Below are positions 23,978 to 25,004 of a stretch of DNA of 40,386 nucleotides, one piece after another. The first letter of the stretch is position 1. Every line of letters starts with the position of its first letter. This DNA is from a virus. Lineage: Duplodnaviria; Heunggongvirae; Uroviricota; Caudoviricetes. The notes under the pieces were generated by a model. That model was not told the origin of the DNA. It did no database searches and saw nothing but the letters and a program-made list of their open reading frames with translations. Both the position numbers and the translations under genes were made by a program. The stretch is taken from the IMG/VR virus record IMGVR_UViG_649989946_000002; one strand, written 5' to 3'.

Positions 23978-24474
23978 CTACATCTGATATTTTTTATCTC
24001 TTAAAGATTCATAAATCCGTTGACAAGTCACTCCTGCGATGTAGCGTTTGTCAGCAATTTCAGCATAAAGCTGAGCTTCTGCTGCAATATCTCCGAGCAT
24101 GTTGGTGAGCATTCCTTCGGCGGCTTTGGTTGTTTTGCCTCTGACGGCAGCGGCAAGATTTGCGGTATGCTGCGCTGCGTCAAGGCGTATGGCATATTTT
24201 GTTGCTTCGGCACGCAGCTGGTTAACACTATCAGACAGATCAGCAGCCCTGGCAGAAATTTCAGCGGCTTTCTGTTGTGCATCTTTAACAGCCTCATCAT
24301 GGGATATAGTTCGCCCCTGTTCAATTATTCGAGCAGCAAATTGGACATTTACCTCTTGAGATAATTCGGCAGCATCACGCTCCGCCCATTTTTTTGCCAT
24401 CCTCTGTCGCTCCAGACATTACCTACGACAAATCCTACCAGCACGAGCAAAATCACCGTGAATATCTGATTCAC
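23978..24474 (-). pseudogene. Spanin inner-membrane subunit Rz, frame broken in a T7 run (24389-24395)
   Basis: GTG at 24474 overlaps the endolysin stop (GTGA) and encodes a TM segment [26 protein letters not shown]; body continues in another frame (ORF 23978..24400); one extra A would give [17 protein letters not shown]..., a 165-aa Rz. Confidence 0.75.
24028..24300 (-). CDS. Spanin outer-membrane lipoprotein subunit Rz1, embedded in Rz in the +1 frame
   Basis: ORF inside Rz with a signal peptide and lipobox ([15 protein letters not shown]) then a proline-rich mature part ([18 protein letters not shown]); start uncertain (Met at 24300 or 24282). Confidence 0.65.
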
Positions 24475-25004
24475 TGTTCTATCCCCCAGCAGGTTAATGC
24501 ACTCTCCTGGTCACGACGAATAACCTGACCGTAACAATTATTTGAACGAATGCGGCAATCACGTCCACCGTCCTTTATCCACCAGCGAATCGCCTCGCAT
24601 GCGCCTTTACGATCACCGGCATTAAGCCGCTTATAAAACGTCGACGGAAAACACTTACCAGGGCCAATGTTATAGGGACAGAATGACGCGATACCGGCTT
24701 TCTGTGGCTCGGTCAGTGGAACTTTTATATTGCGCTCCACCCATGCCAGCGCCTTATCCCGCTCAATGGCGTTAACCTGGGCGCATTTTTCCTTCGACAG
24801 CTTCATTTCCGGTATGACGGGCTTACCATCCACCATTGTGGCACCACGACAGATGGTCCATATACCGGAACCATCGCGGTATGCCGTAGTGTGGTTACCT
24901 TCTTTTTCATCCAAAAACTGGTCGAGAATATCAGGCGCAGGCGCACCGACGGCAATCAGTGCCAGAACAGCAGCCGACAGGCCGTATCTGATTTTAGTAT
25001 TCAT
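24471..25004 (-). CDS. SAR endolysin (lysozyme with signal-arrest-release N-terminus), RrrQ/R21-like
   Basis: 177-aa ORF MNTKIRYGLSAAVLALIAVGAPAPDILDQFLDEKEGNHTTAYRDGSGIWTICRGAT... (T4-lysozyme-like catalytic E-8aa-D-5aa-T region after a weakly hydrophobic SAR helix). Confidence 0.9.
   Translation of the reverse strand: MNTKIRYGLSAAVLALIAVGAPAPDILDQFLDEKEGNHTTAYRDGSGIWTICRGATMVDGKPVIPEMKLSKEKCAQVNAIERDKALAWVERNIKVPLTEPQKAGIASFCPYNIGPGKCFPSTFYKRLNAGDRKGACEAIRWWIKDGGRDCRIRSNNCYGQVIRRDQESALTCWGIEQ

Follow-up and report, generated by a model that had tools for sequence, protein, structure and literature searches.

A split reading frame in the Qin-type spanin gene rzpQ of Escherichia coli 1827-70: a probable homopolymer under-call at a naturally slippery tract

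The viral record IMGVR_UViG_649989946_000002 (Caudoviricetes), a stretch of 40,386 nucleotides (nt) referred to here as the window, contains the two-component spanin pair rzpQ/rzoQ in the lysis cassette of a Qin-type lambdoid Escherichia coli prophage. As deposited, the inner-membrane spanin (i-spanin) gene rzpQ is split by the loss of one A from a homopolymer that normally has eight (A8) and here has seven (A7), while the outer-membrane lipoprotein spanin (o-spanin) gene rzoQ embedded within it is intact. It is probable that this split is an assembly artefact, and that the gene of strain 1827-70 is really A8, encodes 165 amino acids (aa) and is intact. Elsewhere the A7 allele is real and has at least two separate origins, and slippage at the A8 tract genuinely recurs in natural E. 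coli.

The locus is identified as rzpQ/rzoQ on the basis of Pfam and PHROG matches, a K-12 annotation with the same architecture, the same gene order in about 2,100 genomes, and an embedded open reading frame (ORF) that is kept at about 72% DNA identity. Both genes are already known, as rzpQ/rzoQ of K-12 and the spanin of phage N15, and the embedded spanin architecture is textbook. Essentially no relevant literature was found on rzpQ/rzoQ or on strain 1827-70. Whether real or not, the loss of one base from a homopolymer in a prophage lysis gene is an ordinary frameshift of small biological weight.

The frame break in rzpQ

The elements of the locus are as follows.

23978..24474, minus strand: rzpQ, i-spanin gene of the N15 gp55/DUF2514 type, 497 nt here versus 498 nt when intact
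24349..24474, minus strand: 5' fragment ORF of rzpQ, 41 aa, made up of 28 native codons (transmembrane helix), 13 out-of-frame codons and TAA
24389..24395, minus strand: A7 run as read on the coding strand (T7 on the plus strand), where the frame breaks
23978..24400, minus strand: 3' body ORF of rzpQ, 140 aa, periplasmic helical domain, deposited as EFQ02939.1 ("ydfP", E. coli 1827-70)
24028..24282, minus strand: rzoQ, embedded o-spanin lipoprotein gene, 84 aa, intact, in the +1 frame of rzpQ

A preliminary description of this DNA had placed the start of the spanin at a GTG at 24474, overlapping the endolysin stop as GTGA and opening an ORF with a transmembrane (TM) helix; it had also proposed that a one-base change in the T7 run at 24389-24395 separates the TM anchor from the periplasmic body of a protein of 165 aa. 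Coordinates and hydropathy confirm the start, frame arithmetic confirms the split, and the length is recovered when one A is added to the run, which restores an uninterrupted 165-aa DUF2514 protein. The TGA of the lysozyme gene rrrQ (24473-24471) overlaps the GTG of rzpQ (24474-24472). From this start the 41-aa ORF reads [28 protein letters not shown], with ...DRGWQK as the last native residues before the frame is lost, and continues for 13 out-of-frame residues to a TAA at 24349-24351. Its TM helix, [21 protein letters not shown], reaches a maximum 17-residue Kyte-Doolittle mean of 2.72 at residues 4-20. This segment, a hydrophobic stretch read from the sequence, is kept in position across five homologues and would serve as the anchor of a type II (N-in/C-out) protein. 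The exact sequence of the 41-aa fragment has no match in a collection of 15 billion proteins. The 140-aa body ORF lies in the -1 frame relative to the fragment ((24474-24400) mod 3 = 2), and the two frames meet within the A7 run at 24389-24395.

The reconstructed 165-aa protein matches PF10721 (DUF2514) with E = 2.3e-38 and 132 bits (cut-off 26) over profile positions 4-160 of 161, and phrog_312 ("Rz-like spanin") with E = 7.5e-58. The same sequence is recorded as WP_001071777.1, which AZ147, STEC276 and VG1046-3E9 encode as their rzpQ product; residue 151 is a cysteine. A single ORF joining the anchor to the periplasmic domain is thus absent from the window but present in 535 complete genomes with the same context. 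As written, the 140-aa body ORF has neither a signal sequence nor a TM segment. Its ATG directly abuts a GAGGA, and because there is no spacer, independent translation is unlikely to be efficient. The periplasmic domain is predicted to consist of long alpha-helices with linkers: a single-sequence AlphaFold2 model of the body places helices at residues 10-28, 34-85 and 92-138, with moderate confidence (mean predicted local distance difference test score, pLDDT, of 71).

Run length in the window's assembly and in natural E. coli

The window is identical to the E. coli 1827-70 draft GCA_000165655.2 (contig ADUK01000015.1), of which one retrieved stretch (L009) equals window positions 13978-34400 base for base. 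Compared with 5-12 independent, mutually consistent assemblies (the panel), it contains 14 private one-base homopolymer contractions, located at 6597, 11944, 23117, 23123, 24389 (rzpQ), 26859, 27432, 27726, 29110, 31366, 31687, 31693, 37914 and 38743. The paired sites 23117/23123 and 31687/31693, whose flanks also differ, were passed over by the automatic run-length script and were scored from BLAST alignments. No private homopolymer expansion was found in the window relative to the panel; an apparent insertion at 22482 is private to STEC276. The proportion of contracted runs depends on their length:

Run length 4-5: 0 of about 500 contracted
Run length 6: about 7 of 39 contracted
Run length 7: about 4 of 9 contracted
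Run length 8, other than rzpQ: 1 of 3 contracted

In the region from 22.1 to 35.0 kb, there are 11 private deletions and 0 private substitutions. As the contractions are private, run in one direction, become more frequent with run length and are unaccompanied by private substitutions, they point to systematic under-calling of homopolymers, and the 13 contractions other than that of rzpQ are very probably assembly errors. The genes broken by them comprise gpL, a gpZ-like tail gene, ynfN, the Q antiterminator gene ydfT, ydfU and flxA, all intact in every relative, as well as an exonuclease gene; the other sites are intergenic. For example, the ydfT product has 213 aa in the window versus 250, and the ydfU product 278 aa versus 349; at the contraction sites, the longer runs of the panel keep the genes open. 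Of the 7-8-base runs, between a third and a half are shortened in the draft. As a result of this, the homopolymer-linked "broken genes" of the window (Q, ydfU, gpL, the gpZ-like gene, ynfN, flxA) are not to be trusted. Measured against five panel genomes, the window's private substitutions fall into two patches, at 10166-11183 (tail gene region) and 35019-35295 (ydaT/dicC). These look like recombination mosaics, which are typical of lambdoid prophages, and not like point mutations spread along the DNA.

Among natural genomes, A8 is the norm. The normal allele reads CAA AAA AAA and encodes Gln-Lys-Lys just after the TM helix. Complete genomes of the window's allele group were counted by the exact 82-nt context of the run: 535 have A8, two have A7 (UTME-7 and wlxctx60) and none has A9. 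K-12 and a more divergent allele group are also A8. At the protein level, contigs with the identical 165-aa form number 538, against 4-7 with the 140-aa form. The A7 frequency is therefore about 0.4% of complete genomes and about 1% of contigs with an identical protein. Homologues outside E. coli lack the run, having GAA AAA AGG (N15), CAA AAG AAG (F1055) and GAA AAG CGG (ST846) at this position. From these sequences, the run is read as an incidental codon choice for Gln-Lys-Lys, not a conserved recoding signal.

The A7 allele is already present in public protein databases (WP_001491553.1, EFQ02939.1). Frameshifted public rzpQ alleles comprise WP_001491553.1 (UTME-7), EFQ02939.1, HGW6956908.1, MDZ9533696.1 and MEA0359412.1, all with the same A7 and the same 140-aa call; assemblies with A7 include GCA_048033215.1, GCA_034541255.1 and GCA_034536815.1. 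EFQ02939.1 is the window's own record; in the other A7 assemblies the remaining homopolymers are normal, which makes the allele credible there. In wlxctx60 (L003, NZ_AP045833.1), rzpQ has, besides A7, an extra T at the window-equivalent position 24201, and the Prokaryotic Genome Annotation Pipeline (PGAP) splits the gene into three pseudogene pieces. This extra T is either further decay or a long-read error.

The proposed cause of the A7 call in the window is that homopolymers would have been systematically under-called in the 2010-era draft assembly of 1827-70. Because 7-8-base runs are under-called in this assembly with a chance of 33-45%, the A7 call is nearly uninformative, having a likelihood ratio of about 1.4 against a prior of about 1%. 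The phylogenetic position of the window points the same way. Its closest relative, VG1046-3E9, has 0 substitutions over 6,662 positions of the lysis block, differs there only by contractions, and has A8; it also shares the window's full-length head/tail region with 9 mismatches in 13.6 kb. The natural A7 lineage, represented by contigs L010-L015, carries a derived single-nucleotide polymorphism (SNP) at 28779 that is absent from the window. Also absent from the window are the deletions of this lineage, which is a further-decayed Qin: window position 28783 is joined to 37361, with loss of everything from ydfU to dicA/dicC, and the terminase gene ends prematurely at 474 aa, beside a tail-fibre assembly gene and a pinQ-like resolvase gene. 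Across 37.4-40.4 kb, 10-11 SNPs separate the A7 lineage from the window, and the lineage is there the same as the A8 genomes STEC276 and 1297KP. In the haplotype test over 22.1-28.8 kb, A7 contigs and A8 genomes alike are 0-3 SNPs from the window, and the separation comes from the 28779 SNP, the 37.4-40.4 kb block and the prophage structure. The window thus appears to lie outside both A7 clades, and A7 in the window would therefore need an independent event.

Several observations weigh against an artefact. The six contigs L010-L015 (DBFSIY010000008, JAXRDH010000103, JAXQRJ010000005, and Logan assemblies of SRR32302294, DRR100983 and SRR27214117) are independent and encode the same 140-aa product with A7. 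Over 6.6 kb they differ from the window by 0-2 substitutions, and no other run that could be scored in them departs from its normal length. The haplotype on which UTME-7 and wlxctx60 carry A7 differs from the window by about 155 SNPs per 3.3 kb, and three SNPs fall within the TM segment. The clade argument depends on one SNP in the lysis block and a recombinable flanking block, and the artefact call comes from comparing assemblies.

These observations bear on the possibility that A7 is a real, pseudogenising frameshift in 1827-70, independent or ancestrally shared, which arose by replication slippage in the A8 tract and produced a null i-spanin as part of ordinary prophage decay. We consider this unlikely, while noting that it draws on the identical allele in at least two natural lineages with otherwise accurate homopolymers, where the tract is a recurrent slippage site, and on the 0-2 SNPs between the window and one A7 lineage in the lysis block. 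The prophage also bears other real damage, namely an IS3 flanked by a 3-bp target duplication and an inserted ISEsa1-like element, and in lambda the knockout of Rz or Rz1 blocks lysis completely, the cells becoming spherical if there is no shear (PMC6139136). Set against this are the under-calling rate and the resulting likelihood ratio, the prior given by the contig and complete-genome counts, and the SNPs and structure that put the window with A8 genomes. Where A7 is real, a 28-residue anchor would be detached from a body without an export signal, and because of this separation the allele would be an i-spanin null. If it were real in 1827-70 and the cassette were expressed, lysis would halt at the outer membrane and the cells would be left spherical, as in lambda Rz knockouts.

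The remaining explanations give the tract length a function or attribute all of the contractions to mutation. It is very unlikely that the A8 tract is a contingency site, at which slippage from eight to seven switches off the i-spanin and leaves the o-spanin, with low-level -1 slippage restoring some full-length protein. Such a tract would set the ratio of i-spanin to o-spanin or reversibly disarm the last lysis step; conservation of the run among the homologues compared (N15, F1055, ST846) gives no support to a contingency or recoding switch. Likewise, expression of the A7 form by recoding, in which -1 ribosomal slippage on A_AAA_AAT or transcriptional slippage restores some full-length RzpQ and tunes or phase-varies its dose relative to RzoQ, is extremely improbable. 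The native junction is exactly what a -1 shift on the run would produce (frame 2 = frame 1 - 1), variation in tract length has arisen at least twice, and A/T runs are slippage sites for the RNA polymerase and ribosomes of E. coli. However, the uninterrupted A8 ORF is standard (535 of 537 exact-context genomes) and needs no frameshift, there are no A9 alleles among those genomes, and the upstream GAGGA is 4 nt from the run, the wrong spacing to stimulate -1 shifts. In addition, -1 slippage in E. coli does not favour AAT as the A-site codon, and efficient transcriptional slippage is known from runs longer than A7. A programmed frameshift or slippage gene was rejected, given that the frameshifted configuration is not conserved and the slippery run is missing in N15, F1055 and ST846. 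That all 14 contractions are real and reflect a mismatch-repair-deficient (mutator) strain history is scarcely conceivable. The strain name suggests a 1970 isolate, stored for long, and mismatch-repair defects raise homopolymer indel rates with run length. The mutational spectrum would, however, be mostly transitions, with indels of both +1 and -1, whereas 11 deletions stand against 0 private substitutions in 13 kb, and 14 contractions against 0 expansions; contraction of 30-45% of 7-8-base runs would need generations enough for dozens of substitutions. A mutator history was rejected on this private indel:substitution ratio and on the one-way direction. An assembly artefact remains our preferred reading of A7 in the window.

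The embedded gene rzoQ and the place of the pair among known spanins

The gene rzoQ occupies nt 194-448 of the 498-nt rzpQ in the +1 frame, or 0.39-0.90 of its length. This is close to the usual position of an embedded o-spanin gene, which extends from 0.4-0.5 to 0.9-1 of the length of the i-spanin gene (Kongari et al. 2018, PMC6139136). Its product has the signal peptide [23 protein letters not shown], with the lipobox LTSC, Cys23 and a hydrophobic core of KD11 2.97 (Kyte-Doolittle). The lipobox was judged by the pattern [LVI][ASTVI][GAS]C and by hydropathy. The mature chain of 62 aa contains 9 prolines, two further cysteines (in KECSPTCSE) and a valine at +2. By these sequence features, RzoQ would be sorted to the outer membrane (no Asp at +2) and has cysteines that could support disulfide-linked complexes. 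It matches phrog_11621 with E = 2e-8 and is annotated in K-12 as a "putative lipoprotein". The preliminary description was right to place an Rz1 with a lipobox inside the Rz body in the +1 frame, but the prolines lie in the N-terminal and middle parts of the mature chain, not in a tail. Its further suggestion, that an indel in the run matters for spanin stoichiometry, is speculation: the A7 run is 107 nt upstream of the rzoQ start, outside its coding sequence, and the indel leaves rzoQ unchanged. The rzoQ ATG is preceded, at 9 nt, by a GAGG of its own.

The embedded lipoprotein ORF is kept, at about 72% DNA identity, in N15, Salmonella phage F1055, Klebsiella phage ST846-OXA48phi9.1 and phage Eeyore, with the lipoboxes LVSC, LASC, LASC and LASC, respectively. 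In N15, F1055 and ST846 alike, the signal peptide is of 23 residues, the lipobox fits L-x-S-C and the mature chain is of 62 residues; the motif PQ(I/V)[10 protein letters not shown]...CSPTC is common to all four phages. The record of phage Eeyore (PP925821.1) divides the Rz gene, at 1494-2027, into three small coding sequences ("hypothetical", "Rz-like spanin", "hypothetical"). One frame is open throughout and holds the embedded lipoprotein ORF, so this is an annotation error and the gene is not broken.

Qin was correctly proposed as a comparator, as K-12 annotates exactly rzpQ (b1553) and the embedded rzoQ (b4689). The Qin prophage of K-12 MG1655 shares the locus and the order essQ-ydfR-rrrQ-rzpQ/rzoQ-cspI, protein lengths of 165 and 84 aa, a GTG start overlapping the rrrQ stop, and an rzoQ embedded in the +1 frame at nt 194-448 of 498. 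Identity to the K-12 proteins is 148/165 for RzpQ and 81/84 for RzoQ. The two prophages differ in the run, which is A7 in the window but A8 in K-12, and in completeness: the window prophage is nearly full length, whereas K-12 Qin has lost the lambda-like head/tail genes.

Outside the Qin group, a close parallel is phage N15, which is listed as having a two-component spanin of embedded architecture (Kongari et al. 2018, PMC6139136). N15 gene 55 (DUF2514) shares with rzpQ its family, its place after the lysozyme gene, the layout of a TM segment followed by a helical body, and a conserved C-terminal cysteine. The embedded lipoprotein of N15 is likewise of 84-85 aa: its signal peptide takes up 23 residues and its mature chain 62, and it has the motif [13 protein letters not shown]...CSPTCSE. 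The N15 locus differs in having only about 72% DNA identity, a longer N-terminus, another holin, and no A8 run at the junction (GAA AAA AGG).

The Rz/Rz1 pairs of lambda and phage 21 are built in the same way: an inner-membrane protein of type II, whose periplasmic domain is helical, and a proline-rich outer-membrane lipoprotein in the +1 frame, encoded by the last genes of the cassette. The holin (PF04971) and endolysin of the window are 21-like. The Rz proteins of lambda and phage 21, in contrast, have no detectable sequence relationship to RzpQ, and mature RzoQ has 62 aa versus 40 aa for lambda Rz1 (PMC6139136). A Pfam search of RzpQ returned no family besides DUF2514 at E <= 0.01, bar one sub-threshold chance match, and no lambda-type Rz family. 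In phages with a gene annotated as "endopeptidase Rz", the DNA match covers only query nt 1-50, which is the 3' end of the endolysin gene. Kinship of RzpQ with the Rz of phage 21 or lambda was rejected on these two grounds. Phage 21, which had been suggested for comparison, is thus the wrong relative as far as Rz is concerned; by sequence, RzpQ belongs to the N15 gp55/DUF2514/phrog_312 type of spanin, not the lambda/21 type.

By analogy with lambda and phage 21 (PMC6139136), lysis in the intact state would proceed from holin triggering through degradation of murein by the lysozyme to the action of the spanins. RzpQ, anchored in the inner membrane, and RzoQ, anchored by lipid in the outer membrane, would form a periplasm-spanning complex that removes the outer membrane. 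While the architecture, family membership and conservation of the pair are shown, its role in outer-membrane disruption is put forward from this analogy.

The lysis cassette and its surroundings

The gene rzpQ lies directly downstream of the endolysin gene, and the holin gene and ydfR lie upstream in the same cassette:

25379..25594, minus strand: essQ/essD, phage-21-type class II holin, 71 aa (PF04971, "Bacteriophage P21 holin S", E = 4.4e-34; phrog_9876 and phrog_20, holin)
25060..25374, minus strand: ydfR (DUF1327; PF07041, E = 1.4e-40), between the holin and endolysin genes
24471..25004, minus strand: rrrQ lysozyme, 177 aa, N-terminus weakly hydrophobic (PF00959, E = 8.7e-24; phrog_7, endolysin; named rrrQ in relatives)

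By inference, the rrrQ product is a signal-anchor-release (SAR)-type endolysin. The essQ-ydfR-rrrQ-rzpQ/rzoQ region is carried by about 2,100 of 5,426 complete E. coli genomes, in which rrrQ and rzpQ are annotated. The cassette is flanked by cspB and cspI. Rfam identifies cspA-type thermoregulator leaders upstream of these two genes, at 26332-26724 and 23356-23761 (both minus strand), as well as the small RNA DicF at 37221-37272 (plus strand).

Two mobile elements are present in the window. An IS3 of 1,258 bp is located at 20864-22121, between a ynfO-like gene and a hypothetical gene beside gnsB, with its 3-bp duplication at 20861-20863 and 22122-22124. The near-identical prophages VG1046-3E9 and STEC276 carry IS3 the other way round, about 90 and about 172 bp further left. 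Three independent IS3 insertions within about 175 bp look like an IS3 target hot spot. In the early region, 32176-33516 (minus strand) encodes a 446-aa transposase ORF of an ISEsa1/IS1202-like element (ISNCY family); relatives have the same insertion, marked there as partial by PGAP.

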